NCBI GenBank assembly: GCA_964543535.1
Contig: CAZIYS010000001.1
Span: 195,159 to 259,158 of the forward strand
Length of the DNA stretch: 64,000 bases
Direction of reading: 5' to 3'
Origin: an uncultured Gammaproteobacteria bacterium
Lineage (GTDB): Bacteria; Patescibacteriota; Microgenomatia; UBA1406; GWC2-37-13
Part shown: positions 24,209-39,999 of the stretch, one piece after another
Position numbering within the stretch: the stretch's first letter is position 1
Layout of the letters: each line of letters begins with the position of its first letter
Made by a program: the position numbers and the translations under genes
The notes under the pieces: generated by a model
What the model saw: only the letters and a program-made list of their open reading frames with translations
Database searches by the model: none
Told to the model about the DNA's origin: nothing

Positions 24209-24790
24209 ATGGAAAAAATTATCTCTGTTGATTATTTTATTACTAACTTAATAAATAAATTTTTTCCTCATAATATTTTTTTCGATTATTTTTTCTCTTT
24301 TTTTTCCTTAAAAGGTAGCTCAATTTTAATCTGGTTGTTGGTGATTTTGTTGTCAGTGATTTTGGAAGAACGAAAAAATCCCGGTGTCAACAAAAAGGAC
24401 AAAAAGTTTATTATCTTGTTTTCTGTTTCTTTTTTACTGACTTTCCTTTTTAGTGACGTTGTTCTAAAAAATCTTTTTCATCGCCCCCGCCCACAATTAA
24501 TTTCTACAAATTTCAATTTATTTCAATTTATTTCTAACTCTTGCCCAACCGATCTCTCCTTCCCCTCCACTCATGCCGCCACCGCTTTCGCGGCAGCAAC
24601 AGTTTTGACTTTTTTTGACAAAAAACGCCGTTGGTTTTATTACACCGTCGCCGTTTTAATTTCCTTTTCAAGAATTTACCTTGGTTGTCATTATTTTTTG
24701 GATGTCATCGCCGGAGCAATAATCGGATATATCATCAGTCAACTACTTCTATTCGTCCACGATACATTCCCATCCCGCAGGAAAAGTTGA
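24209..24790 (+). CDS. PAP2-family phosphatase
   Basis: RPRP...PSTHAATAFAAA...SRIYLGCHYFLDV acid-phosphatase motifs. Confidence 0.75.
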   Translation: MEKIISVDYFITNLINKFFPHNIFFDYFFSFFSLKGSSILIWLLVILLSVILEERKNPGVNKKDKKFIILFSVSFLLTFLFSDVVLKNLFHRPRPQLISTNFNLFQFISNSCPTDLSFPSTHAATAFAAATVLTFFDKKRRWFYYTVAVLISFSRIYLGCHYFLDVIAGAIIGYIISQLLLFVHDTFPSRRKS

Positions 24791-26048
24791 TGAAACCGGA
24801 GTCTTTCGGAGTAAACTCAAAAATATTTTCGCCTTCGTTTAAAGCTTTTTGAATCCCAAGCGAAGGAACGACAAAATAACCCTGGCAGCCAAAGACATTT
24901 TTCCCGTCAACAATCCATTTAACAGGAATTCTCTTTTTAACAATAAAATAATTGGGAACATAACCGCCGCTAACCACTGCCATATTGATAATTTGCTTGC
25001 CGTTTTCTATCTTTACGTTTGAAGCAGTTCCCTTGTTAATTTGATTGAAACCTAAATTAATCCCATAAATGGAAAGAAAATTTGCCGTATAATATAAGCC
25101 TAAAATCAAAACTCCAACCGCCATCACTTTCATAAAGTATTGATAGATTGTACTTTTTAGCAAACCTCTCAAATTACCGATGAATAAAATGGCCGGCGCT
25201 GTCCCGAGGGCAAAAACCGCCATGGTTAAAGCGCTCTGCCAAGGAGATGCTAAACCCAAAGCATAGACTTGCGTCGCCTGGGTAAAGCCACAAGGAAGAA
25301 AGTATGTAATCAATCCTAACAAAAAAGCTGATTTATGGGGATCTTTAATTAAGCGATTCTCCAACTTTCTGAAAACATTGGAAGAAACACCATAAGGAAT
25401 AATGGCGGCAAAAGAAACAATCTTTAACATATCCAGACCCAGAAGAATCATAAATACGGCTGCTAATAAAGTTAAAACCGATCCGAATTTAAAGTTAATG
25501 ATAATGACGCTGCCGATTAAACCGGCGATGAATCCGAAAAATCCGTAGGAAATAATCCTTCCCGAACTAAAATAAATTGCCTGTTTTAAATTATTGGTTT
25601 TTCTGCCGATTGTTGATAAAAATAGCGCTCCTGAAGTTGCCATGCAGGTAGAGATAGACGCCACTAGACCTAAAAACAAAATGGTTAATAAATTCAAATT
25701 GCCGGTAATATTAATAGCCGGAATAATATTAATTTCTTTGGCAATTAAATAAATTAAGACTAAACCTGCCGTGATTAAAACCGCTTCAAAAATCTTTTTA
25801 CCCAAGGGTTCTTTGTCTTCAATATCATTGTGCCGTTCCGTTATCTCATAACCAAACGGTCGAATTTTTTTATTAATGATGTCTTGATCCAAATGACCGG
25901 TAAAATAAACTTCTGCCTCCTGTTTATTAAAATTAGACTTCACTTCAGTAACATTAGGTACTTCTTTAAATTTATCGGTAATTAAGATCTCGCAGGAAGG
26001 ACAGTGCATTCCTTTGATATGAATGGTTTTTTTACTTATTTTAGGCAT
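24735..26048 (-). CDS. fusion protein: HMA metal-binding domain, polytopic membrane domain, C-terminal cupredoxin-like domain
   Basis: N-terminal GMHCPSC, about 7 TM segments, and C-terminal FSCGMGMYRG resembling ORF 37279..37632. Confidence 0.7.
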   Translation of the reverse strand: MPKISKKTIHIKGMHCPSCEILITDKFKEVPNVTEVKSNFNKQEAEVYFTGHLDQDIINKKIRPFGYEITERHNDIEDKEPLGKKIFEAVLITAGLVLIYLIAKEINIIPAINITGNLNLLTILFLGLVASISTCMATSGALFLSTIGRKTNNLKQAIYFSSGRIISYGFFGFIAGLIGSVIIINFKFGSVLTLLAAVFMILLGLDMLKIVSFAAIIPYGVSSNVFRKLENRLIKDPHKSAFLLGLITYFLPCGFTQATQVYALGLASPWQSALTMAVFALGTAPAILFIGNLRGLLKSTIYQYFMKVMAVGVLILGLYYTANFLSIYGINLGFNQINKGTASNVKIENGKQIINMAVVSGGYVPNYFIVKKRIPVKWIVDGKNVFGCQGYFVVPSLGIQKALNEGENIFEFTPKDSGFINFSCGMGMYRGRIEVVD

Positions 26049-26107
26049 AAAGAAAATTAAACCATTTTAAAAAAGATTTTGCAAATGAAGATACTTTTTA
26101 TTGCCAA

Positions 26108-26284
26108 TCAACAATTTTTTCCATCTTTATAGCACTTCATGCATAATCTCTCATTGCTGCAACTATAATCAGGCAGTTGTTGAAAAAGTTTTTCTATAAT
26201 TACATTTTTAATATTATTACCAAAAAACAACATAATAAAAATAGCCAATAATAGTATTCCTCCAATAATTAATTTGATCTTCAT
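26108..26284 (-). CDS. 58-aa membrane-anchored Cys-rich peptide (not in the ORF track)
   Basis: My own translation: MKIKLIIGGILLLAIFIMLFF...YSCSNERLCMKCYKDGKNC. ATGA overlap with the stop of the CcdA gene. Confidence 0.4.
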   Translation of the reverse strand: MKIKLIIGGILLLAIFIMLFFGNNIKNVIIEKLFQQLPDYSCSNERLCMKCYKDGKNC

Positions 26285-26889
26285 ATGTATCCCTGTAAAG
26301 AGAAATAGATAAGATAGACTGCCGCTGCCAACATTAATACCCCGCCAATTCTTTGAACTAATGTCATATGTCTCATTAATTTAAATTGAAAAACTTTATC
26401 GGTTATGATTAAACCAAACACAAAAAACGGGGTAATAAAACCAATCCCGTAAAAAATAATCATAAAAATCCCGTTGACCAAACTTCTTTGAGCAATAATA
26501 AATGTCAAAAGTGAAGCCAGTTGCGGACCAATACAACCTAAAATAACTGCACCGTAAAGGAGTCCGTCAATAAAGGCATGTGAATGTTTGTTAGGCTCTT
26601 GTATGTGAGGTAGTTCTAATTTAATGGCGCCCAACATCCCCAATCCTGAAATTAAGGTAACAATACCGGCTATAAAATAAAGATAGCGATTAACAGAATT
26701 AGTAAAAACAATACCGGTCAGAGAAGCAACGATTCCTAAAGAAATAAAAACAAGAAGCATTCCAGAAAAAAAATAGATTACCCCAATCAATGATTTTTTT
26801 ATTTTACTGAGAATTACCGGCACCATGATAAAGGTACAGGGGCCAACGATTGAAAGAATACCTAAAATAAATGCATAGAGATAGTTCAT
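26281..26889 (-). CDS. ccdA: CcdA/DsbD-family thiol:disulfide transmembrane electron transporter
   Basis: Six TM segments with one Cys in each half (GPCTF and GCIGPQ). Confidence 0.7.
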   Translation of the reverse strand: MNYLYAFILGILSIVGPCTFIMVPVILSKIKKSLIGVIYFFSGMLLVFISLGIVASLTGIVFTNSVNRYLYFIAGIVTLISGLGMLGAIKLELPHIQEPNKHSHAFIDGLLYGAVILGCIGPQLASLLTFIIAQRSLVNGIFMIIFYGIGFITPFFVFGLIITDKVFQFKLMRHMTLVQRIGGVLMLAAAVYLIYFSLQGYI

Positions 26890-26919
26890 CTTTGTATTTT
26901 ATTGGAAATTAATTATTAT

Positions 26920-26948
26920 CCCTCGACTCGTTTTACTCGCTCGGGATG
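26920..26948. repeat. GC-rich palindromic element family C, intergenic copy
   Basis: ccctcgactcg-ttttac-tcgctcgggatg. Related inverted copy at 39036-39064. Confidence 0.75.
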
Positions 26949-26958
26949 AAGATTAGGT

Positions 26959-27561
26959 TTATTTAAATCTAATCTTCACTTTTTTCCCTTTAAGATTGTC
27001 TTCATTTGCAGGTTTAAGATCTTCGTTTTTAAGACAGTAACCGGTGACATCGCAAATTATTTTGGCCAAATTTTCCTTGGAGATATATCCATCAACCGTA
27101 TATTCTTTCGAGTCTTTTTTTGTAGAAAATACAAAACCAGGAGTAAGACTTAATTTATATTTTTGCATGATGTCATTACAACTTTCCCGGGTATATTTTT
27201 CCAGTTTGAAAGCCTGGCCCTCTTTTTGCAAAAGCTCGTCCAAATGCTGATCTTCCAATATGCACCAAAAACAGACCGGAGAGTAAAAATATTTTATCGT
27301 TAAGTCTGCGTCAGGATTTCCCGCTTGCTCATCCGGACATTTGGATTCAAGCTTAATTTTTTTCGTAAACTCAGGTTTTAACTGTTGCTTTTTTAATATT
27401 AATAATTGTTTTTGAGAAATAATTAATTTTTTTTTATTAAAATTTATTAAATTCCTTAAAGCAATATTGGCAAAAATAAACAAAAAAATAATTAGCAAAC
27501 CGATTACCAACAAAAAATATCGTTTTTCATCCTTTTCAATAACAATTTTAGGAAAACTCAT
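26959..27561 (-). CDS. membrane-anchored thioredoxin-like protein (CxxC)
   Basis: N-terminal TM helix. CFWC motif after a beta-strand-like YFYSPV. Confidence 0.55.
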   Translation of the reverse strand: MSFPKIVIEKDEKRYFLLVIGLLIIFLFIFANIALRNLINFNKKKLIISQKQLLILKKQQLKPEFTKKIKLESKCPDEQAGNPDADLTIKYFYSPVCFWCILEDQHLDELLQKEGQAFKLEKYTRESCNDIMQKYKLSLTPGFVFSTKKDSKEYTVDGYISKENLAKIICDVTGYCLKNEDLKPANEDNLKGKKVKIRFK

Positions 27562-27562
27562 A

Positions 27563-27790
27563 TTAACAACCTCCCACCTGTTGGGGAATATCTTTTAAAG
27601 CTGCCGGTAAATTTGATTTACCTACTGAAGTAGTAGTCCCATCCGCTTGTTTCTTACCAAGAAGGCTTGTTAATACCACTGTTTGGATTACGGAAATGAA
27701 GACTAAAATTGACAAAAGTCCTAAAACAAGCATGTTAATATTAAAGCGAAAAGTTATCTGTTTGTTTTGACGTTTTAATTCTTCTACCAT
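27563..27790 (-). CDS. 75-aa single-TM protein ending in QQVGGC
   Basis: Strong SD (aaggaggtg) 7 nt upstream. One TM helix. C-terminal Cys is the last residue. Confidence 0.5.
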   Translation of the reverse strand: MVEELKRQNKQITFRFNINMLVLGLLSILVFISVIQTVVLTSLLGKKQADGTTTSVGKSNLPAALKDIPQQVGGC

Positions 27791-27889
27791 TATTTCTCAC
27801 CTCCTTTAGAGATTGTTTGCGAACTTATAATAGTGAGCATTACAATCTCTTAAGTCCTTCCGTAGCTAATTGAGCGAAGGAGGACTCCA

Positions 27890-28510
27890 TCATTTTCCAT
27901 TTTCCAACTGTTGTAACATCGATTGCTCTATACTAACTATTGACAGCCGTTCGCTCATCCAGTCATTAACGGAAACTGATTTCGGATCAGTACCTTTCGA
28001 TTGTAAATACGTTGCCGCAATCGCATAGTGTTTTGGCCACCAGAAGCGGTACCATAAGAATAATTCTTCCTTAATTTTTTTGTCATCCCATCCTTGAGTA
28101 ATAAGATATTTTGCTAGTCCCATAGCCGCCTGGGCATGAAGACAGTCTTTAGTGTCAATGGGAGCATCGCAACAGGGGTGAGGCAATTTACCTAAACTTT
28201 CCAGTCTCTTTTTCTGATCGGCCGTTAAGCTGGAATCAGCAATTTCTTTTTCCATCTCAATCATTTGCTGACCGTTGGTCTCAACATATTTACTTAAAGT
28301 CACCGGTTCATCTTTCCATTTATATGGTCTGACTTCATCTTTATCAGTTGGGAGAATATCGGTTGATCCACTGTTAACGGATGCAGCTGATAAAGTAATT
28401 GCTCCGGAAGACAAAGCGTAGATTACCTGGGTCAAAAGAATTTGTTTAACGGCTGTTACCAAAATTGCAATAATTAAAAAACTTTTTATTAATTTTGACT
28501 TGAATATCAT
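27890..28510 (-). CDS. secreted Cys-rich protein, P-C-C-D...D-C-x-H family (paralog 1), unknown function
   Basis: Signal-anchor N-terminus. PHPCCDAPIDTKDCLHAQA aligns with RPCCDNSTAFPDCNHGMA of ORF 37634..38563. Confidence 0.6.
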   Translation of the reverse strand: MIFKSKLIKSFLIIAILVTAVKQILLTQVIYALSSGAITLSAASVNSGSTDILPTDKDEVRPYKWKDEPVTLSKYVETNGQQMIEMEKEIADSSLTADQKKRLESLGKLPHPCCDAPIDTKDCLHAQAAMGLAKYLITQGWDDKKIKEELFLWYRFWWPKHYAIAATYLQSKGTDPKSVSVNDWMSERLSIVSIEQSMLQQLENGK

Positions 28511-28532
28511 AAGAAGTAATTTTACTCAAATA

Positions 28533-28554
28533 TTTATGAAGATTTTATGAAGAG
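28533..28554 (-). promoter_or_regulatory. direct-repeat box (TCTTCAT-N4-TCTTCAT), candidate response-regulator site
   Basis: atgaaga at 28536 and 28547 (11-bp period), 11 nt upstream of a TAAAAT -10 for the gene starting at 28510. Confidence 0.5.
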
Positions 28555-28615
28555 AAAATATAAAAACGACCCACCTTTGAATGGTTATAATCATTTACCG
28601 TAACAAAATTGATAA

Positions 28616-28891
28616 TTACTTTTTTGCAAAATAATTATATAAATTGGCAAAAAGATAGCCGACTAACCAGGTGCCGATCGTTGACGTTGTTAGTCCCAGG
28701 ACGAATGAACCTAATGACAGATTTAATTCAGAAATTTGGGTTAATTGAATACCATGGAACCACGACTGGGCAATCGTCATTGCCAGATCTGGGAAAAGAG
28801 CAACTCCTACACGACAAACAATATAAACTATGGCGACGGTTACTGCCGCCGCATTGGCTGTGGCTTTTGGATCATGTTTCATATTTTTCAC
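28616..28891 (-). CDS. small membrane protein, unknown function
   Basis: 91 aa with two hydrophobic helices and an SD-like aaggaggtg upstream. The plus-strand ORF 28609..28911 is judged to be an antisense artefact. Confidence 0.5.
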   Translation of the reverse strand: MKNMKHDPKATANAAAVTVAIVYIVCRVGVALFPDLAMTIAQSWFHGIQLTQISELNLSLGSFVLGLTTSTIGTWLVGYLFANLYNYFAKK

Positions 28892-28911
28892 CTCCTTTCA
28901 TATATTTATAA

Positions 28912-29391
28912 TTATAACTCCCATTTCAACTTCCTCTGCGAAACACCGCCAACATCTTTGATGATTAACTCAACGAACTTTGTTTCTGATAAGACTGTAT
29001 TAAAAGTCAAGGTTCCCTCTCGATGATGGCCGCCTGGAACAGTGCCTTTCCAATTCGAATTAGAGTAGATATTGCTTTTGTCATCAACAAATGAACTTAT
29101 CTGAGCTACATCAAATGCTAAATCCACCGAGTGAGTCTCAAATACAATGTTAAAACTTGGTTTTTCCCCGATTTTCAAAACTTTTGGCTTAACTTTTACT
29201 GTAACATTGCCGCCTTCATTTTCCTGAGAATTTAGATTTTCTTCCTGCTTACTAACACTGCTAACAGCTTTAATCCCGGCAGATTTTTTATCGGTTTTTT
29301 TGACGGCATTAATTCCCAAAAATAAAACTACGAAGACTAAAATTATTAGTAAAAAATTATTGATTTTTGACATGGGTTTTGATCTTAGCAA
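28912..29391 (-). CDS. membrane-anchored secreted protein with GGHH motif, unknown function
   Basis: N-terminal TM helix, beta-rich ectodomain, GTVPGGHHREG. Confidence 0.5.
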   Translation of the reverse strand: MLRSKPMSKINNFLLIILVFVVLFLGINAVKKTDKKSAGIKAVSSVSKQEENLNSQENEGGNVTVKVKPKVLKIGEKPSFNIVFETHSVDLAFDVAQISSFVDDKSNIYSNSNWKGTVPGGHHREGTLTFNTVLSETKFVELIIKDVGGVSQRKLKWEL

Positions 29392-29806
29392 TTGTTTTTA
29401 ACATATATAAAATCCCCAATAAGTTCATCGATATTCCGAAAATGATGATGGGAATTTGATATCTCGTCAGAAATATGGCAAAGCCTGATAGACCGATTAT
29501 GGGCAGAACTTCGCTTAGGTGATGTGCACAGCAGGCAATCATTGAGGCAGATGAAGTACCTGTAGAAGCGGCCGTGACGGCTCCGGCTTGATTTGTGACT
29601 GGCGAATGACTGATTAGCCTCTTCAACCGTGTAAATAAACCAATCTGAACTCCAAATCCTAAGGACAAAGTTATCATCCAATACCAGAGTTCTTTAAATT
29701 GGAAAATGGTGGCTGACCAACTTCTTGAAGCAAATGTCATCACTAAAAAATAAAAAAACAGCAGTCCGAAAAACCCGGCTAACCCGCTTAAAATTTCTTT
29801 TTTCAT
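29357..29806 (-). CDS. 4-TM membrane protein with intramembrane C-C-A-H-H motif
   Basis: SASMIACCAHHLSEVLP lies within a hydrophobic segment. Confidence 0.55.
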   Translation of the reverse strand: MKKEILSGLAGFFGLLFFYFLVMTFASRSWSATIFQFKELWYWMITLSLGFGVQIGLFTRLKRLISHSPVTNQAGAVTAASTGTSSASMIACCAHHLSEVLPIIGLSGFAIFLTRYQIPIIIFGISMNLLGILYMLKTIAKIKTHVKNQ

Positions 29807-29818
29807 AATCTTAATTAT

Positions 29819-29847
29819 ATGAAGACATTATTAAGAATTTATGAAGA
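29819..29847 (-). promoter_or_regulatory. triple direct-repeat box, candidate response-regulator site
   Basis: atgaaga (29819), attaaga (29830), atgaaga (29841): exact 11-bp period. The box abuts a TATAAT that lies 7 nt before the ATG at 29806. Confidence 0.55.
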
Positions 29848-29855
29848 ATGGAAGA

Positions 29856-30455
29856 TTAGAAAGTTCTTTTTTTATAGTCTAAGTAAGTCTTGCTAAATTT
29901 ATCTTCCATCTCCTTCTCTTCTTGTTTGGCCAAAATAAAATAACGGATAATCAAGATCGGCGCCATAAGAAGAGTAATTAAGGTTGGCCATTGGAGAAGA
30001 AAACCAATAATAATCAGAATAAAACCAATGTATTGAGGGTGGCGGACATATTTATAGACACCGGTTGTTGCCAAAATATTTTCTTTTTGCGCTTTGTATA
30101 AGACTTCCCAGGCAGTGGCAATGAGAACTAAACCGCCAATAATTAAGCCATTACTAATTAGATGAAGATAGTTAAAATGCGGATCTCCGGAAATATTCAG
30201 AAGTTTATTCAATACGTGGCCTGAATCGTGAGAAAAATCAATATTAAAAAATTTGTTACCAAACCACGAAGTTAACAGATAAATAGTTAAGGGAAATCCA
30301 TACATCTCGGCAAAAAGAGCGACTATAAATGCGGAAAACGTCTGATAAGTCCGCCAATCGGTTTTACTGCGGGGCTTAAAAGCCGATTTTAGAAACACTA
30401 AAAAAATGACTATGCTAATTATGACAAGAAACCAGTTTCCATACTCGTATTTCAT
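29856..30455 (-). CDS. isoprenylcysteine carboxyl methyltransferase (ICMT/PEMT) family membrane methyltransferase
   Basis: VYKYVRHPQYIGFILIIIGFLL motif. Confidence 0.75.
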   Translation of the reverse strand: MKYEYGNWFLVIISIVIFLVFLKSAFKPRSKTDWRTYQTFSAFIVALFAEMYGFPLTIYLLTSWFGNKFFNIDFSHDSGHVLNKLLNISGDPHFNYLHLISNGLIIGGLVLIATAWEVLYKAQKENILATTGVYKYVRHPQYIGFILIIIGFLLQWPTLITLLMAPILIIRYFILAKQEEKEMEDKFSKTYLDYKKRTF

Positions 30456-30496
30456 AGTTCGATAAACTCACTATAACCCTGAGCAAAGTCGAAGGG

Positions 30497-30763
30497 TCAT
30501 AATGACAAAATCTTGCTGATGAACTTCTTTTTATCCAGAGTACCGCTAGAAAAAAGTTTTCCGTTGATGATAATTCCCGGGTTGGATAAAACCGAATGTT
30601 CAACGGCCAGATCTAAACCCTTTGCAGTGATGATATTAATTTTTTCAATATGTAGTTTAAGATAAGAAAATTCTTTTTTGACTTCCTGGAATATGATTTT
30701 AGCCCGCTCACATTCCGTACACCCGGGAGCAGTCAAAAACTGGACTTGAATTACCGGTTTCAT
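30497..30763 (-). CDS. small thioredoxin-fold protein (glutaredoxin-like, CxxC)
   Basis: 88 aa with TAPGCTECE motif. Confidence 0.7.
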   Translation of the reverse strand: MKPVIQVQFLTAPGCTECERAKIIFQEVKKEFSYLKLHIEKINIITAKGLDLAVEHSVLSNPGIIINGKLFSSGTLDKKKFISKILSL

Positions 30764-31458
30764 GGATTATTTTTTGGGTTCTGTAATTGATCAATATGAC
30801 TTAAAAGAACATTGGCCGGGACATTCATGTTGGGAAAATCAGCTGATGAATGTATTTTCCCATCCGGAGTAATATGAATATAGGTATGGCCAGCCCGATC
30901 GTCATGCATTGATGAAGGTGTACCTAAGGCTTTATATGCTTTTGTTACTTTCCGGTCGGCATCAATAAGAATCGGAGTAGTAATTCTTTCTTCTTTAAGA
31001 ATTGGGTTCCAGGTTGCCTGATCATCCACGCTAACCGGAATAATTATTGTATTCAATTTCTCAAAATCATTCTTAAACCGTTCCAACCGAGATATTTCCT
31101 GCCAGCAAGGAGCACACATCACTCCTTCGTTAAAAAAAAGAAAAATATTTTTTCCTTTATATTCTGATAGTGAAATTGTTTTTCCTGATGTTGAGGGAAG
31201 ACTGAAATCTGGAGCTATTGTTCCAGGGGCGAGTGGTACAAATTTTTTATTGCTTGCGGCTCCTCCCCCGCCATGATGATCAGCCATCGGATCGGCAGCG
31301 GCAACCTGTTTATTATCAGCTTTGACTTGATTTTTACTGCTGGCCATCGAATACCCGACCACAACCGTCATAATAATAAGAATAATAAGGGCATAGGTTA
31401 ATATTTTATCCTTTGATAACGAAAAAACAACCTGATCTGTATCTGTAATATCTTTCAT
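30760..31458 (-). CDS. membrane-anchored redoxin (AhpC/TSA / ResA-like thiol-disulfide oxidoreductase)
   Basis: TM anchor. FFNEGVMCAPCWQE CxxC block in a thioredoxin fold. Confidence 0.75.
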   Translation of the reverse strand: MKDITDTDQVVFSLSKDKILTYALIILIIMTVVVGYSMASSKNQVKADNKQVAAADPMADHHGGGGAASNKKFVPLAPGTIAPDFSLPSTSGKTISLSEYKGKNIFLFFNEGVMCAPCWQEISRLERFKNDFEKLNTIIIPVSVDDQATWNPILKEERITTPILIDADRKVTKAYKALGTPSSMHDDRAGHTYIHITPDGKIHSSADFPNMNVPANVLLSHIDQLQNPKNNP

Positions 31459-31482
31459 ATCTCTATTTATATACTTTTAATA

Positions 31483-31500
31483 ATTAAGATTTTATTAAGG
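31483..31500 (-). promoter_or_regulatory. direct-repeat box, candidate response-regulator site
   Basis: attaaga (31483) and attaagg (31494), 11-bp period, upstream of a TATA-rich -10 and the ATG at 31458. Confidence 0.45.
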
Positions 31501-31508
31501 GCTCGTTC

Positions 31509-31579
31509 GTCCCGCTTAGCGGGACGATTACGGCCCTTTATGCCGCATCCTTAAAGATCGTATTATTAGCGGATGCGGC
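31509..31579 (-). terminator. two GC-rich hairpins directly after the CcdA-like gene stop
   Basis: gccgcatcc...ggatgcggc (9-bp stem) abuts the stop codon. It is followed by gtcccgc-tta-gcgggac. Confidence 0.5.
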
Positions 31580-32428
31580 TTAAGACTGCCGGGATTTTCC
31601 TTTAAGAAAAAATCCTATGCCAATTAATATAATGATTAACAGAAATATCCAGTCCGGCACTCCGCCAGTCAAATTTAAAATTTTTCTTTGCATTAAAGTC
31701 ATCGTCGCCACTAACCGTGTTTGCGAAGGAGTGATCGATGTTATCTGATTGGTCGTTGCCAGATAAAGAATATAAATCCCGATTATTAAAAAAACCATAC
31801 CGGTTATAAGATTGGTCGAATGAATCATTAACTGTCTATTAAAAACTTTAAACCGGAAAGTAAATCCCCTGACAAACCGGCTTTCTGAAAAGTTAAAGCT
31901 TTCCCAAAAAAAAGCGAGAATGAAAAGAGGAAAAACCATACCAAAGACATAGACTAAAGACAGAATCAAGGCCTGAAAAGTACTCGCTGAAAGAGCAGTC
32001 AACGTTAATACTCCAGCCAAAACCGGCGCACAGCAGGATGAGGCTAAGCCGGAAAATAGACCCAGTCCAAAGACAGAAAAGACATCATGCTTTTTTAAGA
32101 GCGGGGCGGTTTTGAAAGGCGGGTTGAATTTTTTTCCGGAAAAAGAAAGCAGCGCCAATAAAATCATAAAAACTCCGCCTAAATAAAAAACCTGGGTATG
32201 ATAATTCTTAAAGAGCGAGCTTAAAAATGAAACGCCTAAACCGATCGGTACTAAAATAGCGGCTACTCCCAAGAAAAAAACAAAGGTCATCAAAAGAATC
32301 GCCTTCTTTTGTTTGAAAGTATAGGCAAAATAGGCAGGGAGCATAAAAGTTATACAACAAGGGGCAAACAGAGCTAACATTCCTCCTAAAAACGAGGCAA
32401 TAATTGAGGTTTCAAATAAAATATTCAT
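31580..32428 (-). CDS. CcdA-like membrane protein with vicinal Cys-Cys in both halves (copy 1)
   Basis: LFAPCCITFMLPAY and SSCCAPVLAG. Paralog of ORF 38560..39393. Confidence 0.7.
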   Translation of the reverse strand: MNILFETSIIASFLGGMLALFAPCCITFMLPAYFAYTFKQKKAILLMTFVFFLGVAAILVPIGLGVSFLSSLFKNYHTQVFYLGGVFMILLALLSFSGKKFNPPFKTAPLLKKHDVFSVFGLGLFSGLASSCCAPVLAGVLTLTALSASTFQALILSLVYVFGMVFPLFILAFFWESFNFSESRFVRGFTFRFKVFNRQLMIHSTNLITGMVFLIIGIYILYLATTNQITSITPSQTRLVATMTLMQRKILNLTGGVPDWIFLLIIILIGIGFFLKGKSRQS

Positions 32429-32560
32429 TTAATGACAACTTTTTTTTGAATTTTTATCATTATCACCACCATGACCACCATGGTTTCTCATCATAATTAT
32501 ATGAATAAGCGGACATAACAGTAATATTGCGTAGGGAAGGATGCTTTTTATAATATCCAT
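32429..32560 (-). CDS. 43-aa DUF2933-like membrane peptide (not in the ORF track)
   Basis: My own translation: MDIIKSILPYAILLLCPLIHIIMMRNHGGHGGDNDKNSKKSCH. Its stop is immediately followed by the ATG of the next gene. Confidence 0.55.
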   Translation of the reverse strand: MDIIKSILPYAILLLCPLIHIIMMRNHGGHGGDNDKNSKKSCH

Positions 32561-32583
32561 AGCCCAAGAATACCTGATTGGTT

Positions 32584-32601
32584 ATTAAGAAATTATGAAG
32601 A
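32584..32601 (-). promoter_or_regulatory. direct-repeat box, candidate response-regulator site
   Basis: attaaga (32584) and atgaaga (32595), 11-bp period. Overlaps the kinase stop codon, upstream of the ATG at 32560. Confidence 0.45.
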
Positions 32602-33600
32602 AACAAGAGGCAGGCTGATCGTAAAAACAGTCTTTTTGCCGACTTTGCTTTTTACTTCTATCTCTCCCCGATGAGAGTTAACTATGGCTTTAGCAATCGC
32701 CAGTCCTAATCCCGACCCGAGGGTCTTTTCTCCGGAGGATCCCCGGTAAAAACGGTCAAAAATACGGGAGATATCTTTTTGAGATATGCCTACACCATTA
32801 TCTTTTATTTCTATAATTGCCTGATATTTATTCTTCTTAAGAACGATTTCAACTTTGTCTTTTGTAGGAGTGTATTTGATCGCATTATCAATAATATTTA
32901 AGAGTGCCCGTCCCAGCTTTTCTTTAAAACCAATAATTTCGATGTTTTTATCAAAAGAACCGGAGACTTTAATATTTTTCTTTAGAGCCATTTTCTGAGC
33001 CAGTTCAAATAATTCTTCCATTAGTTCACTGAGATTAAATGAAATAGCATTTTTTTGTTCCATCGGTGTCTCCGACCAGGCCAGATCCAGAACATTTTTT
33101 AACGTCGTTGAGACGCGGTGAGTTTCTTGAACTGCCTCTTTAAGAGTTTGGCGGTATTCATCTTCGGTTCTTTTTTGATTCAAAGCGATTTCTAGAGTAC
33201 TTCGTAACGTTGATAAAGGTGTTTTCAGTTCATGAGCCACATCGGCAATAAACTGTTGTTCGCGCTTAAAAGCAAAATGCAGGCGATCAAGCAGTTGGTT
33301 GAATGTCTGTGCAAGTTCACCGATCTCATCGCGACTGTCAATTCCGTCAACCCTCTCATCAAGATTTTTACTGGAAATCATTCGCATCCGCGAGGATAGA
33401 TAGGTAAGGGATTCGGTGATTTTATAGATGATAATAAAACCAAATAGAGCCAAAGTTAAAAAAAGAAGCAGAATAAAATAAAAACCGTTTTTAAAAGCAA
33501 ACACGTGGACAACTAAAACAATAAATATTCCTAACAAAGCAAGGCTGCCTATATACCAAAAAAAAAGTTTTTTTATTAAACTGTCAACCGGCTTTCTCAT
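32593..33600 (-). CDS. sensor histidine kinase (HAMP-HisKA-HATPase; CusS/CopS-like architecture)
   Basis: H-box ADVAHELKTPL, N-box IIDNAIKYT, G-box GSGLGLAIAK. Two N-terminal TM helices. Confidence 0.85.
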   Translation of the reverse strand: MRKPVDSLIKKLFFWYIGSLALLGIFIVLVVHVFAFKNGFYFILLLFLTLALFGFIIIYKITESLTYLSSRMRMISSKNLDERVDGIDSRDEIGELAQTFNQLLDRLHFAFKREQQFIADVAHELKTPLSTLRSTLEIALNQKRTEDEYRQTLKEAVQETHRVSTTLKNVLDLAWSETPMEQKNAISFNLSELMEELFELAQKMALKKNIKVSGSFDKNIEIIGFKEKLGRALLNIIDNAIKYTPTKDKVEIVLKKNKYQAIIEIKDNGVGISQKDISRIFDRFYRGSSGEKTLGSGLGLAIAKAIVNSHRGEIEVKSKVGKKTVFTISLPLVSS

Positions 33601-33602
33601 CT

Positions 33603-34274: not shown

Positions 34275-34285
34275 AGGCAAATGAT

Positions 34286-34315: not shown

Positions 34316-34370
34316 TTTAAAGTTATATCTTAATTAAACCTTCACAAACTGATTGCTATTATTTTTACAT

Positions 34371-34532: not shown

Positions 34533-34534
34533 AT

Positions 34535-34924: not shown

Positions 34925-37165
34925 TTATATTTTTGCTTTTTTTAGAAAAAGCGAATTTGTAACTACTGAAATGCTAGAAATTGCCATTGCTCCTGAGGCT
35001 AAAATCGGACTAATCCACCCCATCATGGCCACCGGTATCAAAACTACATTATACGCGAAAGCCCAAAATAAATTAAGCTTAATTGTTTTCATTGTTTGTT
35101 TGGATAATTTAATCGCCGAAACCACTGACATTAAATTTTTATTAACTAAGGTAATCCCGGCCGCTTCAATCGCAACGTCGGTGCCGCTTCCCATAGCAAT
35201 CCCGATGTCAGCGGAGGCAAGCGCCGGCGCATCATTAATTCCGTCTCCGATCATAGCAACTATTTTTCCTTGTAATTGAATCTTTTTTACTTCTTTTTCT
35301 TTGTCCTGTGGCAAAACTTCGGCTAAAACGTTTTCTTTTTTAATCCCAACTTGATTAGCAATTGCTATTGCTGTTTGATTGTTGTCTCCGGTAATCATAA
35401 ATATCTCAATCTCTAAATCTCTCAATCTCTGAATTGCTTCTTTAGCCGTTTCTTTAATCGTATCGGCAATGGCAATTGCGCCTACTAATTTTTCATCTAT
35501 ATAAACATAAACTACGGTTTTGCCTTGATTTTTTAGTTTTTGAGCCTGGTCACCCTTAGGGTGTTCAGCCACGAGTTTACCTACATAAATCTTTTTTCCG
35601 TTGATCATCCCTTCAACACTTTGACCGGTAATTGATTTAAACTTAGAGACTTTAATTAATTGAAGTTTTTCTTCTTGCGCTTTATTAACAATTGCTTCGC
35701 CCAAAGGATGCTCGGAATTTTTTTCGACAGATGCGGATAGAGTTAAAAGCGAAGATATTAAATTTTTTGCGGTTTGTGGTTTTCCGTCAAAAAATTTCGA
35801 TATCGAGCTTTTATTTATCACAATAATGTCTGTCACTTCTGGTTTGCCTTTCGTCAATGTCCCTGTCTTGTCAAAAATTATTGCTTTGATTTTATGGGCA
35901 GTTTCCAAGCTCTCAGCATCTTTAATTAATATTCCATGTTGAGCCCCGATTCCTGTTCCAACCATAATCGCAGTCGGGGTTGCCAGTCCCATTGCGCAAG
36001 GACAGGCAATAATTAAAACGGCAATCGAGTTAAGCATTGCCAAAATGAATCCGCCGGCTGACGGCCCAAAAACATACCAACCAACAAATGTTGAGATAGC
36101 CAACATTATCACAATAGGAACAAAATAAGAAGAAATAATATCGGCCAATCTTTGAATTGGGGCTTTGCTTCCCTGTGCTTCTTCAACCATTTTAATAATT
36201 TGGGAAAGCATGGTATCTTTACCGACTTTAGTGGCTTTATAAACAAAACTTCCCGATTTGTTCATCGTCGCTCCAATTACCATATCTCCTTTATATTTTG
36301 AAGCGGGCATGCTTTCACCAGTCACCATCGACTCATCAATTGCTGATTCTCCTTCAATAATGACTCCGTCAACAGGAATTTTTTCTCCCGGTCGAACCCT
36401 GATTAAATCACCAGCAACAACCGCATCAATTGAAATATCGATTTCTTTTTTATTTCGAATTACTCGAGCAGTTTTTGCCTGAAGGCCGATTAATTTTTTA
36501 ATCGCTTCTCCTGTCCCGGCTTTAGCTTGAGCTTCCAAGAACCGGCCCAACAAAATCAAACCAATAATAACTGTTGAGACGTCAAAATACGGTTCGGTTT
36601 TTAAATTTAGTCTTTCAAAAAAACCAGGAAAAAATACTACTGCGGCAGAATAAAGATAAGCTACCGTTGTTCCAATCACTACCAAAGTATCCATGTTGGC
36701 AAGGCGGTGTTTTAAAGAAGAAATCGCCGCTTTGTAAAAATCATAAGCTCCCCAAAACTGGACAATTGACGCCAGGAAAAAATGATAGAACATGTTTTTT
36801 AAGATATTTGGAGCCGTATTCAAAAGCCCTGGAAAACTCCCCCAAACGACTAAGCCAGCTAAAATTAGGCTGACAGTAGTTTTAATCTGGAGGTCTTTCA
36901 ATTCTTTTTCCTTTTCTTCTTTGATCTTCTCATCCAATGAATCTTCCTCGTGGGTTTCATCTAACATCGCTTCGTAACCAACACTTTCTACTGCACTTTT
37001 TATAGCATCATTTCCAATTGGCATAGCCGCAGTTATAGTGGCTTTGCCAGTATTCAAATTAACAACCGCTTCAGTAACTCCGGGAATTGCTTTTAATGCT
37101 TTCTCATTGGAATAAACGCACGAAGCACAGTGCATGCCTTTAATGGCAAAAGTTTGTTTATTCAT
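34925..37165 (-). CDS. copA: copper-translocating P1B-type ATPase
   Basis: N-terminal [37 protein letters not shown]. Confidence 0.95.
35745..35812. repeat. AT-rich hairpin element family E, in-frame copy inside copA
   Basis: Differs by only a few bases from 37175-37240. Translated as [23 protein letters not shown] between DKTGT and SEHPL. Confidence 0.85.
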
Positions 37166-37278: not shown

Positions 37279-37632
37279 CTATTTAATAATTAGTTTGCCG
37301 TGGAACATACCCATGGCACAGGAAAAATCAAACTCCCCTTTTTTATCGGGGGTGATTTCAACAGTTACTTTCTCATTCAGAGGTAATGATTTTTTAATTT
37401 TAAAGTCGGCAAAAATCACTTCTTCCAAACAACTATTACTGTCTTTTCTTTGAAAAACTAGTTTTGTTGTTTTCCCATATGGAATTGCAATCCTTTCCGG
37501 TTTATAACCACCATCAACTAAGATATCAATTCTTCCTTCTGCTTGAATTGTATTAACTTTTTTCATAAAAAAGAACCAATAAGTAAATATTATGCCTAAG
37601 ATGCCAGAAACAGCAACAATTATTTTATCCAT
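37279..37632 (-). CDS. membrane-anchored cupredoxin-like domain protein
   Basis: TM anchor and FSCAMGMFHGKLIIK C-terminus. Same motif as the C-terminus of ORF 24735..26048. Confidence 0.65.
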   Translation of the reverse strand: MDKIIVAVSGILGIIFTYWFFFMKKVNTIQAEGRIDILVDGGYKPERIAIPYGKTTKLVFQRKDSNSCLEEVIFADFKIKKSLPLNEKVTVEITPDKKGEFDFSCAMGMFHGKLIIK

Positions 37633-37633
37633 A

Positions 37634-38563
37634 TTAAACCCCGCATCCTCCTCCGGTTTTTGGCGGCTGTTCGACTATTCCTTTATTAATTAACCACTGT
37701 TTAGCCGCTTGCCAACCTGAGGAAGAAGAAAATTCTTTACCTAATATTATCTGGGCTGGAACCTGGCTAAATTTTTTCCCTTCCTTATTTTTAAAGTATA
37801 ACGCCAAATCATAGTAATTACTTGGGAACCAAAATGCATTAAAGTATTTGGCCGCTTCAAACATCTGATTTTCCGTGGCATTATTTCCTGCCATCAACTG
37901 TAACACTGCCAGTAACGCCATTCCGTGGTTGCAGTCCGGAAAAGCAGTCGAATTATCACAACAAGGACGATAGATATTGCCAGCTACTTTTGCCACTAAC
38001 GCCTGTTGTTGATCGTTTAATGAAATCAGGCTTTCTTTTGAAAAATAATTCATTGGGTCACCGGCCGCCAAGCTCCAGCCACCGGTTGAGGCAAAATTAC
38101 CAACCTTGCCTTCACCGTACTTAACAATATCGCCTTCATCTAAAACCTTTGATTTATTGTTTAAACCAACGGCCCAGAAAAAGTTGAGCAAAAAATAAGA
38201 ATTGTCACGATCTATCTTGATTTTTTTATCTGATCCTTTAGTCAAAATTTCCAGCTGCTCTTTAGTTAACGGCTGAGCGCTCTTTTCATATGTCTGTTTA
38301 AACTTTTCCAGATCAATCACTCCGGAAGCAACCATTTTAGGCCCTAAATCGTCATATTTCGCATTAATCTCAAAGCCTTTTTCCGGATTAATTTCATCAA
38401 ATAAATTTGCCGTTTCTTTTTTCGCGGCAGTTTCTTTGCTTTTTGAGATTAACTTATTAACCTGCGGCTTTAACACATAGGCTAAAGCTAAAATATTTAA
38501 CCCCAAACTCAATCCCAAAACAATAAGCCAAAGATTTTTGGCTGGTTTTTTTGTTCTTTTCAT
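37634..38563 (-). CDS. secreted Cys-rich protein, P-C-C-D...D-C-x-H family (paralog 2), ends in GGGCGV
   Basis: Signal anchor. YRPCCDNSTAFPDCNHG. ATGA overlap with the upstream CcdA-like gene. Confidence 0.6.
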   Translation of the reverse strand: MKRTKKPAKNLWLIVLGLSLGLNILALAYVLKPQVNKLISKSKETAAKKETANLFDEINPEKGFEINAKYDDLGPKMVASGVIDLEKFKQTYEKSAQPLTKEQLEILTKGSDKKIKIDRDNSYFLLNFFWAVGLNNKSKVLDEGDIVKYGEGKVGNFASTGGWSLAAGDPMNYFSKESLISLNDQQQALVAKVAGNIYRPCCDNSTAFPDCNHGMALLAVLQLMAGNNATENQMFEAAKYFNAFWFPSNYYDLALYFKNKEGKKFSQVPAQIILGKEFSSSSGWQAAKQWLINKGIVEQPPKTGGGCGV

Positions 38564-39401: not shown

Positions 39402-39505
39402 ATTGATATTTTCGCTTTTAGCAGACGAGGTAAGCGTAATTTTTTCACCTTTTGAGTGATAAAATTACCTTACCGAGTCCAATAAACACGGTGTCAAGCT
39501 TTTAT
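39402..39505. repeat. hairpin element related to module X/E termini
   Basis: Reverse complement starts aaagcttgacaccgt and ends aaaagcgaaaatatcaa, as at 17463-17624. Internal stem ggtaagcgtaatttt/aaaattaccttacc. Confidence 0.5.
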
Positions 39506-39999
39506 TTGACAGTCGCTTTAACCTTAAATATTAATTTTTGATTGTCCGGATCATTGGTTGTCACATAAACTTCCCTCTCTACCACTCCATAAACCGGCAT
39601 TATGGAAGGTCTGTAAGTTACTTTAATGATCGCTTCTTTCCCCGGCAGTACTTCTCCGGCAAAATCTGAAATATTATGCATCCCAAAAAGCTCAGACTCT
39701 TTACCGTTTATTACGATCTGACCAAAAGCGCAGTTACAACTTGAAGAAACGTTGCTCAACTGCAAAGGTTTTTGACCGATATTTTTTATCTTAAAGTTGG
39801 CTGATTTATCGTCGGAAACCTTCATCTTCCCCAAATCAGCAAAAGTCGTTTTAGCTTCCACCCTTGGCTTTTCTTTATTTGTAGTTGAATAAGACGCGAT
39901 TTGCGGTTGCGGCTTTTGTCCACCCACTAACATAAAATACGAACCGCCAATAACAACGATTGAAAAAATAATTATCCCGATGATTAAAATTTTTGACAT
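39502..39999 (-). CDS. DUF1573-domain protein (membrane-anchored)
   Basis: FKIKNIGQKPLQLSNVSSSCNCAFG matches the DUF1573 hallmark. Confidence 0.7.
   Translation of the reverse strand: MSKILIIGIIIFSIVVIGGSYFMLVGGQKPQPQIASYSTTNKEKPRVEAKTTFADLGKMKVSDDKSANFKIKNIGQKPLQLSNVSSSCNCAFGQIVINGKESELFGMHNISDFAGEVLPGKEAIIKVTYRPSIMPVYGVVEREVYVTTNDPDNQKLIFKVKATVK

Follow-up and report, generated by a model that had tools for sequence, protein, structure and literature searches.

Two proteins encoded in the window, the whole 64-kb stretch of DNA analysed here from a candidate-phyla-radiation genome, represent a family whose helical core is, by profile comparison, remotely related to CcmH and is probably a diverged form of the CcmH three-helix bundle. 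We propose that this CcmH-type scaffold may have been converted in the family into a thiol site for handling Cu(I) that is kept reduced through CcdA, and we regard the case for this as evenly balanced. We infer both the binding of Cu(I) by the Cys/His cluster of the two paralogues, par1 and par2, and the supply of electrons from CcdA.

The family comprises 369 clusters at 50% identity and spans at least 577 species of Patescibacteria and Chloroflexota. The par2 homologues make up more than 5,027 clusters at 90% identity, all named hypothetical and without Pfam domains, and the par1 homologues 41 clusters. With its thousands of sequences the family is without any annotation, and its clear definition would suit a new Pfam or NCBIfam entry. 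Searches of the Pfam, NCBIfam and PDB sequence libraries with single sequences and profiles gave nothing relevant to par1 or par2, and literature searches on CcmH-like copper proteins, on DUF1573 and copper, and on copper systems of Patescibacteria yielded no description of the family. Around one third of the members carry an additional N-terminal membrane domain with GC-x-x-C, and the long members of this kind have 466–497 aa. The island around par1 also encodes a membrane protein with an invariant CC-x-H (Table 1); BLASTP between it and the GC-x-x-C domain was not significant (E 0.31 to 6), and we propose no kinship of the two.

Table 1 Positions in the window of the two paralogues, their parts and the genes around them
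Feature	Position	Strand	Evidence
HMA–DsbD_2–cupredoxin fusion closing the island	24735..26048	-	Pfam
Canonical CcdA (DsbD_TM), one Cys per half (GPCTF, GCIGP)	26281..26889	-	PF02683, E 1.7e-11; position conserved
Thioredoxin-like protein, membrane-anchored, CFWC motif	26959..27561	-	Pfam Thioredoxin_2 and Thioredoxin, weak, E 2e-4
Membrane-anchored 75-aa protein ending ...IPQQVGGC	27563..27790	-	ORF
par1, 206 aa: N-terminal anchor, short β/α segment, CcmH-like core	27890..28510	-	ORF
par1 motif HPCCDAPIDTKDCLHAQAA, with H111, C113, C114, D122, C123 and H125	28124..28180	-	translation
DUF5676 two-TM protein, just upstream of par1	28616..28891	-	Pfam PF18926, E 5.9e-21
Membrane protein with invariant CC-x-H	29357..29806		
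Second thioredoxin-like neighbour	30497..31458		
CopA-type P1B ATPase, N-terminal HMA (CASC), transmembrane CPC	34925..37165	-	sequence
Cupredoxin_1 protein, membrane-anchored, conserved C68, C105 and H111	37279..37632	-	Pfam, E 4e-23
par2, 309 aa: anchor, N-domain (~60–180), CcmH-like core, GGGCGV tail	37634..38563	-	ORF
par2 C-terminal tail PKTGGGCGV, carrying Cys307	37637..37663	-	translation
par2 CcmH-like helical core, ~residues 181–262	37778..38023	-	region common to par1; hhalign against the par1 family profile and against CcmH
par2 motif RPCCDNSTAFPDCNHGMA, with R199, C201, C202, D210, C211 and H213	37916..37969	-	translation
CcdA-like membrane protein, 277 aa	38560..39393	-	Pfam DsbD_TM, E 6e-5, under the curated cut-off
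DUF1573 Ig-like exported protein, invariant C-x-C	39502..39999	-	Pfam; C88 and C90 100% conserved
CsoR-family repressor, ligands C33, H58 and C62	40047..40310	-	Pfam PF02583, E 7.7e-25

Two paralogues and their cysteine–histidine motif

The sequence-only reading had described two paralogous secreted proteins with signal anchors, and we recovered both ORFs on the minus strand with exactly the same ends. The paralogy holds: BLASTP aligns par1 and par2 at 26% identity over 66 residues (E 4e-9), including the common W(F/W)P-x-x-Y block that had been claimed for them (WWPKHY and WFPSNY), and hhalign of the par1 and par2 family profiles gives a probability of 95% and E 2.8e-8 over 109 columns, covering par2 residues 181–291. 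By these comparisons the similarity is well beyond chance, and a fortuitous likeness of two Cys-rich loops is rejected by BLASTP, the profile alignment and the conservation of the motif. Both N-termini carry a basic stretch followed by a hydrophobic helix (H9-58 and H4-34 in the two AlphaFold2 models). This fits the proposed N-terminal anchors with the domain outside, and suggests an outward-facing (extracytoplasmic), membrane-anchored topology.

The common core is helical and roughly 110 residues long, and the AlphaFold2 models (pLDDT 84.8 for par1 and 84.6 for par2) are all-helical around the motif. The N-domain of par2, which is absent from par1, is rich in invariant residues, including NSYFLLNFFWA and FASTGGW; it has no fold match in the PDB, where Foldseek found nothing below E 4.5 with the whole par2 model. 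The C-terminal Cys tail is likewise missing from par1. In par2 it is probably flexible, because model confidence is low there (pLDDT <50 for residues 304–309), and its C307 is found in 133 of 150 representatives of the 50%-identity clusters.

Among the 150 representatives of the 50%-identity clusters the motif [R/H]-P-C-C-x8-C-x-H is almost invariant. In par2 numbering C201 and C211 are kept in all 150 and C202 and H213 in 149 each, so that the four candidate ligands singled out by the sequence-only reading are essentially invariant among homologues. The residues beside them are also strongly conserved (P200 in 148, D210 in 144 and R199 in 143), followed by those of the W-block (W245 in 141, F246 in 135, P247 in 130 and Y250 in 118). 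The motif residues of par1 are invariant among 34 par1 homologues. A fifth conserved residue appears to be involved, supplied by the tail Cys in par2 or by a separate small GGC-terminated protein beside par1, and the tail Cys would serve the same cluster. An in-frame TGA (selenocysteine) at a motif Cys was seen in 0 of 89 motif instances from 85 family loci, which is weak evidence because most loci were fetched by patterns that demanded Cys.

Relationship to CcmH

With the par1 model as query, Foldseek against the PDB placed the CcmH structure 2hl7 first (probability 0.98, E 0.61), with a target-normalised TM-score of 0.61 and an rmsd of 1.5 Å over 57 columns, and a second CcmH structure, 2kw0, third; the same search with the par2 model did not find CcmH. 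The core profile (Neff 4.4) aligned by hhalign to 50 CcmH sequences with a probability of 91.5% and E 8.8e-7 over 55 columns, and to 13 proteobacterial and other CcmH sequences with 79% and E 1.7e-5. The true CcmH comparison scored 36.5–37.9, against 8–17 for 20 column-shuffled profiles and 11.8 for the reversed profile. In addition, two CcmH proteins of Chloroflexota match the core HMM, at E 3e-4 and 6e-4, with the register unchanged. Taken together, these alignments indicate that the family is homologous to CcmH at the profile (superfamily) level. The sequence-only reading had not recognised the family: it does lie outside the curated libraries, and it matched no functionally unrelated family with confidence, but hhalign reveals the remote kinship to CcmH, which is also the top Foldseek hit for par1. 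Direct searches stopped short of this link. PF03918 gave no match to par1, par2 or any of 71 homologues even at E <= 10, NCBIfam gave none, and a HMMER profile search of 1.84 billion proteins stayed within the family without reaching CcmH.

CcmH/CycL/NrfF (PF03918; 2HL7, 2KW0), the System I apocytochrome c thiol reductase, is, as predicted for the family, an extracytoplasmic, membrane-anchored helical bundle with its reactive Cys in the helix 1–helix 2 loop and the start of helix 2. The two share the register R-x-P-x-C-x-N-x-[ST]...D-[SC]-N...A, then G-x-[ST]-x-x-[EQ]-[IM], and a genetic tie to CcdA/DsbD and a thioredoxin-like reductase. However, LRCxxC is absent from the par1/par2 family, which has [R/H]PCC-x8-C-x-H in its place as well as the tail Cys, and the alignment keeps only the second Cys of the CxxC, as C202 of par2. 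This C-terminal Cys is the solvent-exposed nucleophile of CcmH (PMC3884852). Some other PF03918 members are also without LRCxxC and carry APCC...MHG, and the CcmH of Bacillales carry HPPGC-x8-C, with a C-x8-C spacing identical to that of the par1/par2 family. Further differences from CcmH are the anchor, which is N-terminal in the family and C-terminal in CcmH, the additional helices of the core from WFP-x-x-Y onward, the 120-residue N-domain of par2, and a setting in CsoR/CopA operons without a CcmF/CcmE partner and, in Patescibacteria, without cytochrome c substrates. The link to CcmH provides a predicted fold, a candidate nucleophile (C202) and a candidate chain from CcdA through a thioredoxin-like protein to the family protein.

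Copper operons and thiol-reduction genes

The gene order that surrounds the family gene, X, is CsoR–DUF1573–CcdA-like–X–(DUF5676)–cupredoxin–CopA, and a 65%-identical relative has CsoR–DUF1573–CcdA-like–X–DUF5676–Cupredoxin_1–CopA–HMA-DsbD_2-cupredoxin. Across 80 species-level loci, with CopA and CsoR scored within 7 kb and some of the loci that lack them being truncated contigs, the family gene neighbours CopA in 43, DUF1573 in 41, the CcdA-like gene in 37 (directly upstream of the family homologue), the HMA–DsbD_2–cupredoxin fusion in 22 and CsoR in 19. The ligand spacing of the window CsoR (25 + 4) matches that of the Cu(I) site C36/H61/C65 of M. tuberculosis CsoR. Judged by gene content, the setting of the family is copper, not cytochrome c, and among the predicted exported proteins of copper operons in Patescibacteria and Chloroflexota the family is one of the most conserved. 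To our knowledge, no part of copper handling in these two groups has been tested experimentally.

The sequence-only reading had also put both paralogues next to CcdA-type genes, and such genes are present at both sites. At par2 this is the 277-aa DsbD_TM-like gene, whose stop overlaps the par2 start by 4 nt (ATGA), which suggests translational coupling; its C26C27 and C144C145 pairs and H79 are 100% conserved among 37 homologues. At par1 it is a clear CcdA/DsbD_TM gene, with par1 two genes upstream of CcdA. Four contigs share the unit par1–GGC protein–thioredoxin-like–CcdA, including the placement of the thioredoxin-like gene between the small GGC protein and CcdA, and on three other contigs a gene ending VPQQVGGC comes after the par1 homologues. 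The tail Cys missing from par1 is probably contributed in trans by the 75-aa GGC protein. The thioredoxin-like protein of the unit resembles CcmG, ResA and TlpA, and in Chloroflexota loci the family homologue adjoins CcdA and a TlpA-like gene. Gene neighbourhood thus points to a CcdA/DsbD reductant that would act via the thioredoxin-like protein. The DUF5676 gene, upstream of par1 in the window, lies just downstream of the par2 homologue in relatives. A second thioredoxin-like neighbour is present in the window (Table 1).

Possible functions and known systems

In the mechanism that we propose, family proteins would be produced alongside CopA, a cupredoxin, DUF1573 and DUF5676 from a copper-stress operon in which CsoR senses Cu(I). 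The P-C-C-x8-C-x-H cluster would sit in the loop and at the start of helix 2, where CcmH has LRCxxC, and a mobile C-terminal Cys would join it, built into par2 and contributed to par1 by the separate GGC-terminated protein. This thiolate/imidazole cluster would capture Cu(I) brought outside the membrane by CopA and then hand it on. The adjacent CcdA-type protein would keep the thiols reduced, or return them to that state, and hence metal-competent, with the thioredoxin-like protein as a further partner in the par1 unit. This mechanism assigns no role to the conserved N-domain of par2, which counts against it, as do the remoteness of the CcmH link and the limited numbers of loci with CsoR (19) and CopA (43). 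The sequence-only reading had offered either metal binding, of Cu(I) or Zn, or redox chemistry with reduction through CcdA: the Cu(I) option gains from the place of par2 in a recurrent CsoR–CopA operon and the redox option from the par1–thioredoxin-like–CcdA unit, but zinc found no specific support. A Cu(I) site and a CcdA-reduced redox centre are the two leading readings, both now strengthened.

Pure thiol-disulfide chemistry would account equally well for vicinal Cys pairs and for a Cys that begins a helix. The family protein could then be a CcmH- or Scs-like reductase or isomerase for which copper is never a ligand, which we consider unlikely while giving it real weight. C202 and C211 would act and C201 or the tail Cys would resolve, with electrons from CcdA, with or without the thioredoxin-like protein, and the substrates would be misoxidised Cys of exported proteins during copper stress or, ahead of metal loading, the Cys pair of the co-encoded cupredoxin or DUF1573. 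The homology to CcmH, with C202 on its nucleophile, argues for this, as does the sole Cys pair of bona fide Bacillales CcmH, which is a C-x8-C in a protein encoded within a ccmEFH cluster; CcdA, a thioredoxin-like or TlpA-like protein and the family protein also mirror DsbD→CcmG→CcmH. The constant neighbour DUF1573 is reportedly listed among selenoprotein families and thought to be mostly redox-acting, and the flexible ...GGCGV tail is reminiscent of the swinging redox arm at the C-terminus of large thioredoxin reductases; both count towards a reductase. However, an invariant His two residues past C211 and an extra vicinal Cys would be needless in a dithiol reductase and belong to the typical ligands of soft metals. 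The CcdA-like partner of par2 is also non-canonical, and its two vicinal CC pairs would form strained disulfides. It is improbable, in our view, that the 277-aa CcdA-like protein instead uses its two intramembrane CC pairs for transmembrane movement of Cu(I), or of a different thiophilic metal, through ligand exchange, with the family protein accepting the metal at its CC/C/H site and tail Cys, much as in the mercury relay MerP–MerT–MerA. Such a previously unrecognised copper relay of vicinal Cys-Cys motifs, equally improbable, would have a CcdA/DsbD fold carry Cu(I), a CcmH fold accept it and a swinging tail Cys, contributed by a separate protein in the par1 system, close the site, and two electron-transfer scaffolds of cytochrome c maturation would have been jointly converted to metal trafficking in bacteria without cytochromes c. 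The complete conservation of both CC pairs and H79, the overlap of the gene with par2, the invariant CC-x-H gene and HMA–DsbD_2 fusions in the island, and the GC-x-x-C fusions in about a third of the family would all suit a relay, and vicinal Cys pairs typify the transfer of Hg(II) by MerT, MerF and MerA. Against it, we know of no DsbD/CcdA-fold protein shown to carry copper, export is already provided by CopA of the same operon, the canonical single-Cys CcdA and CxxC thioredoxin-like protein of the par1 unit point to electrons, and the DsbD_TM match of the 277-aa protein is below the Pfam threshold.

Two further explanations set copper aside. Cys3-His is a common structural zinc ligand set, and the cluster could be a structural Zn(II) site or structural disulfides that stabilise an exported domain, with the activity elsewhere, for example in the par2 N-domain with its many invariant residues and no PDB fold match. 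We regard this as very improbable: par1 is without the N-domain yet retains the motif, a separately supplied tail and a thioredoxin-like/CcdA unit of its own, a site of purely structural use would hardly need a dedicated reductant pathway, and the context is copper-specific. An orthodox CcmH role in cytochrome c maturation, which the remote homology would allow, is scarcely credible and we reject it. In two Chloroflexota loci a homologue does lie 2–3 kb downstream of tlpA–ccmF–ccmH, but both loci have a genuine CcmH already. CcmF or CcmE matches are absent from the other 78 of the 80 loci, including all those labelled Patescibacteria, the Pfam CcmH model gives no match, and no ORF segment of >=100 aa in the window contains CXXCH. 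Patescibacteria are, as far as we know, generally held to be without respiratory cytochromes.

Returning to a Cu(I) site, its placement on a CcmH-type bundle would give the family protein the relation to CcmH that Sco and ScsC have to thioredoxin. If Cu(I) is bound, this would be a second thiol-reductase scaffold recruited for copper, after the thioredoxin-fold Sco/ScsC, and the CcmH fold would have a role beyond cytochrome c maturation. The copper chaperone ScoI has a Cys2His site and is reduced by TlpA (PMC6669012). As in Sco/ScoI, a redox-enzyme fold would be reused as a Cys–His copper site (Cys2-His in Sco, predicted in the family), TlpA-like, CcdA-dependent reduction of the Cys would precede metal loading, and a cupredoxin protein is encoded alongside (PMC6669012, PMC6696091). 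In contrast, Sco has a thioredoxin fold with CxxxC...H and serves CuA/oxidase assembly rather than copper stress; the loci examined showed no cytochrome oxidase genes beside the family, and par1 and par2 have no Pfam thioredoxin or SCO1/SenC match. The proteobacterial Scs system (ScsB–ScsC–ScsD) similarly combines a DsbD-type reductase with exported or anchored thiol proteins under copper stress. ScsC is a copper-induced thiol oxidoreductase/disulfide isomerase with sub-picomolar affinity for Cu(I) that depends on the DsbD-like ScsB (PMC8900818, PMC10907172, PMC3322552). Scs proteins have the thioredoxin fold and CxxC, whereas the family has a CcmH-like fold and CC...C-x-H with no detectable sequence relationship to them; a thioredoxin-fold signal is absent from par1 and par2 and present only in their two thioredoxin-like neighbours. 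The lineages also differ, since the family belongs to Patescibacteria and Chloroflexota, which are taken as single-membrane, and not to Proteobacteria.

At the level of ligands, the adjacent Cys pair of KPCC in Cox17 coordinates Cu(I), and in Cox17 and the Mer relay (MerT, MerF and the MerA C-terminus) a Cys-Cys after a basic residue and Pro serves as a soft-metal ligand for Cu(I) or Hg(II), with mobile Cys tails at the C-terminus that pass metal on to a core site. Neither in fold nor in compartment are these proteins related to the family, and the likeness would be one of chemistry only.

Two paralogues of a large unannotated family

The two secreted proteins proposed as paralogues in the sequence-only reading are minus-strand ORFs with exactly the coordinates it gave, and translation recovers the peptides it quoted (see table). 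The paralogy of paralogue 1 (par1) and paralogue 2 (par2) is genuine, because BLASTP aligns them at E 4e-9 (26% identity over 66 residues) and profiles of their homologues align with 95% probability (E 2.8e-8, 109 columns; par2 residues 181–291, par1 residues 94–202). The BLASTP alignment spans both the motif and the W(F/W)P-x-x-Y block already seen by eye (WWPKHY and WFPSNY). In their sequences and AlphaFold2 models both proteins start with a few basic residues followed by a long hydrophobic helix, which agrees with the signal anchors proposed earlier and fits a membrane anchor with the remaining protein predicted to be extracellular. Besides a core resembling the cytochrome-c maturation thiol reductase CcmH, par2 has a conserved 120-residue N-domain.

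More than 5,027 clusters at 90% identity are homologous to par2, all hypothetical or unnamed and none with a Pfam domain; named homologues are from Roizmanbacteria, Microgenomates and other Patescibacteria. For par1 there are 41 such clusters. A profile of the shared core matches 369 clusters at 50% identity (1.84 billion representatives searched), 262 of them at E ≤ 1e-10. When 150 of these 369 representatives were aligned, the four candidate ligands of the sequence-only reading were kept in at least 149: C201 (150/150, par2 numbering), C202 (149/150), C211 (150/150) and H213 (149/150), alongside P200 (148/150), D210 (144/150) and R199 (143/150). A fifth cysteine lies in a Gly-rich C-terminal tail (...GGxCGV) in 133 of the 150; in par2 this tail is a low-confidence region of the AlphaFold2 model and probably flexible. 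The sequence-only reading did not recognise the family, and par1, par2 and their homologues likewise have no match in Pfam, NCBIfam or PDB sequence searches, nor did we find a description in the searchable literature. With the Cys/His positions conserved and no match in these databases, the initial proposal of a Cu(I)/Zn site or CcdA-reduced redox centre stands.

Scanning one genome per GTDB species places the gene in at least 577 species. The 80 best loci come under the labels Patescibacteria (Roizman-, Woese-, Collier-, Levy-, Davies-, Portnoy-, Nealson-, Dojka- and Saccharibacteria) or Chloroflexota (Anaerolineae, Chloroflexia), except for a block with other labels such as "uncultured Gammaproteobacteria". 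Loci 60–88% identical to the window operon occur in many genome assemblies under the titles "uncultured Gammaproteobacteria", "Pseudomonadales" or "Rhodobacter" (L017, L029, L031 and L032 among others), third-party records that we suspect of being assigned to the wrong organism. Approximately one third of par2-type proteins are 460–515 aa long, with an N-terminal multi-pass membrane domain that has a conserved G-C-x-x-C and no Pfam match; the par2-type gene in par1-containing operons is of this long form.

Relationship to CcmH

Confident AlphaFold2 models built from family alignments (pLDDT 84.6 for par2 and 84.8 for par1) both place the motif in a loop after one helix, with the third Cys and the His beginning the next. 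In Foldseek, a check named in the sequence-only reading, par2 had no PDB neighbour and the best match of par1 was 2HL7, the periplasmic domain of Pseudomonas CcmH (probability 0.98, target-normalised TM-score 0.61, rmsd 1.5 Å over 57 columns), with E. coli CcmH (2KW0) third; the E-values of 0.61 and 1.4 are not significant alone. Profiles were compared with 13 CcmH/NrfF/CycL sequences from plasmid records and 37 Bacillales-type CcmH, all assigned to PF03918, and scores rose with profile diversity: E 0.026–0.14 for single-family profiles, 1.4e-4 for the two-family core, 1.7e-5 for the 150-representative core and 8.8e-7 (91.5% probability) for that core against all 50 CcmH sequences. The real score was 36.5–37.9, compared with 8–17 for 20 column-shuffled CcmH profiles and 11.8 for a reversed profile.

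The alignment sets R-C-P-x-C-Q-N-x-S-I-x-D-S-N-A-x-x-A of CcmH against Y-R-P-C-C-x-N-x-T-x-F-P-D-C-N-H-G-M-A of the family, a register that makes biochemical sense; C202 aligns with the second Cys of the CcmH CxxC, its solvent-exposed nucleophile (PMC3884852), and C211 takes the place of Ser in the helix-2-capping D-S-N. Some accepted CcmH proteins have motifs intermediate toward that of the family. In Bacillales CcmH this is HPPGC-x8-C, with the same C-x8-C spacing as the family, and one such protein lies within a plasmid-borne ccmE–ccmF–ccmH–ccmABC cluster; two further PF03918 members have APCCW-SMTADMHG and Chloroflexota CcmH have YCPVCPNTPLDVC. The HPPGC-x8-C proteins are among P0311–P0356, and the plasmid-borne one, from Cytobacillus firmus plasmid NZ_CP107028.1 (L013:7363–7860), sits in a complete System I ccm cluster. 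With the Bacillales and APCCW...MHG forms, the CcmH redox motif varies more than reviews say; the textbook motif, LRCxxC, is absent from Bacillales CcmH.

We conclude from the profile comparisons that the shared core is most plausibly a diverged, remote member of the CcmH superfamily, outside the CcmH family as defined by Pfam. Membership of CcmH itself was rejected: the family fails on the Pfam family model, the LRCxxC motif and CcmF partnership, and therefore should not be annotated as CcmH.

Copper context and proposed function

Features of the window around the two paralogues
Feature	Position	Strand	Basis or note
CsoR; candidate ligands C33/H58/C62	40047-40310	-	Pfam, sequence
DUF1573	39502-39999	-	Pfam
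CcdA-like membrane protein, 277 aa	38560-39393	-	DsbD_TM-like
par2 ORF	37634-38563	-	309 aa
par2 motif peptide RPCCDNSTAFPDCNHGMA	37916-37969	-	translation
Cupredoxin_1	37279-37632	-	Pfam
CopA; HMA domain, CPC motif	34925-37165	-	sequence
Two-component system	32593-34280		
Third thiol-redox module	30497-32428	-	
ICMT family membrane protein	29856-30455	-	
149-aa membrane protein	29357-29806	-	
159-aa exported protein	28912-29391	-	
DUF5676	28616-28891	-	par1 unit
par1 ORF	27890-28510	-	206 aa
par1 motif peptide HPCCDAPIDTKDCLHAQAA	28124-28180	-	translation
75-aa anchored protein ending ...QQVGGC	27563-27790	-	par1 unit
Thioredoxin-like protein, CFWC	26959-27561	-	par1 unit
Canonical CcdA	26281-26889	-	par1 unit

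Both paralogues do have the CcdA-type neighbours reported for them, with the par2 start overlapping the CcdA-like stop by 4 nt and a canonical CcdA in the par1 unit. The candidate ligands of CsoR have the spacing of the Cu(I) sensor. In a 65%-identical relative the operon is compact and runs CsoR–DUF1573–CcdA-like–X–DUF5676–Cupredoxin_1–CopA–HMA-DsbD_2-cupredoxin, where X is the family protein. Within ±7 kb at 80 species-level loci, searched with the window's own proteins, we found CopA (43 loci), DUF1573 (41), the CcdA-like protein, always directly upstream of the family gene (37), a response regulator (29) and histidine kinase (25), usually just downstream, HMA–DsbD_2–cupredoxin (22), CsoR (19) and DUF5676 (19). 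BlaI/CopY-like repressors with BlaR1-like proteases, YHS domains, DsbA-like proteins and Met/His-rich proteins also recur. The 277-aa CcdA-like protein differs from canonical CcdA, scoring below the curated Pfam cut-off for DsbD_TM, and across 37 homologues conservation is 100% for H79 and for its two vicinal Cys pairs, FAPCCITF and SSCCAPV.

Family genes are co-encoded with the CsoR Cu(I) sensor, the CopA exporter, exported Cys/His proteins and CcdA-type proteins, with or without thioredoxin-like proteins. We rate the family as putative extracytoplasmic thiol proteins that belong to the CcmH superfamily, are linked to CcdA and have been recruited to copper homeostasis; it carries weight because it is large, has an invariant motif, is wholly unannotated and points to clear experiments. 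On a reading to which we give an even chance, Cu(I) released outside by CopA would bind the Cys-Cys...Cys-x-His cluster, which would sequester it or hand it on, for example to cupredoxin or DUF1573 proteins, and the CcdA route would hold the thiols in reduced form. Cox17 likewise binds Cu(I) through [K/R]-P-C-C. The proposed action is as in ScsC–ScsB (PMC8900818, PMC10907172, PMC3322552) and ScoI–TlpA (PMC6669012), where the fold of a thiol reductase also serves as copper site and relies on a DsbD/CcdA-type reductant; the scaffold here is CcmH-like.

The main rival, possible although less probable than Cu(I) binding, is a protein acting purely as reductase or isomerase, to repair or prepare the cysteines of exported proteins during copper stress. 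Rather doubtful is transport of Cu(I) instead of electrons by the 277-aa partner, an idea raised by its fully conserved vicinal Cys pairs and H79, which recall the mercury relay. For the cluster, a structural role as Zn site or disulfide is unlikely, and an orthodox CcmH role most unlikely of all: CcmF and CcmE were found in no Patescibacteria-labelled locus among the 80, CXXCH is absent from all ORF segments of at least 100 aa in the 64-kb window, and the two Chloroflexota loci with the family gene 2–3 kb downstream of tlpA–ccmF–ccmH (L093 and L094) have their own genuine CcmH. Of the 80, only these two loci, the first also with ccdA, connect the family physically with genes for cytochrome c maturation.

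The par1 unit and surrounding island

The par1 unit runs DUF5676, par1, the 75-aa protein, the thioredoxin-like protein, CcdA and a 58-aa ORF, and is also present on four other contigs. On the three of these that were read, the small protein has an identical VPQQVGGC end and the par1 unit forms one operon with a cupredoxin and a par2-type gene of the long, membrane-fused kind; because this operon holds both types, par1 and par2 very likely act in one pathway. The VPQQVGGC proteins (L096:6651–6929, L097:6635–6901 and L098:6655–6918; long par2-type genes at about 2250–3830) have Cys as last residue. The GGC-ending protein is always downstream of par1-type genes and looks like the GGxCGV tail of par2 as a separate protein.

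Between CopA and HMA–DsbD_2–cupredoxin, the window has ~8.8 kb (about 26100–34900) with the two-component system, three thiol modules and the par1 unit, and its absence from the otherwise syntenic operon of the 65%-identical relative (L014) suggests that the block was inserted or expanded. The third thiol module, downstream of the two-component system, encodes a DsbD_TM protein (282 aa), an anchored AhpC/TSA-Redoxin and a Thioredoxin_3 protein. Two unannotated proteins, the 149-aa one with invariant C92-C93-x-H95 and the 159-aa one in which H87 and H122-H123 are invariant, are repeatedly neighbours of the family (10/80 and 12/80 loci, respectively) and look like extra metal-handling parts. An isoprenylcysteine-carboxyl-methyltransferase-like (ICMT) gene also lies inside this metal/thiol island and is present in 5/80 related loci; intriguingly, proteins with ...GGC or ...GGCGV ends are encoded close to it.
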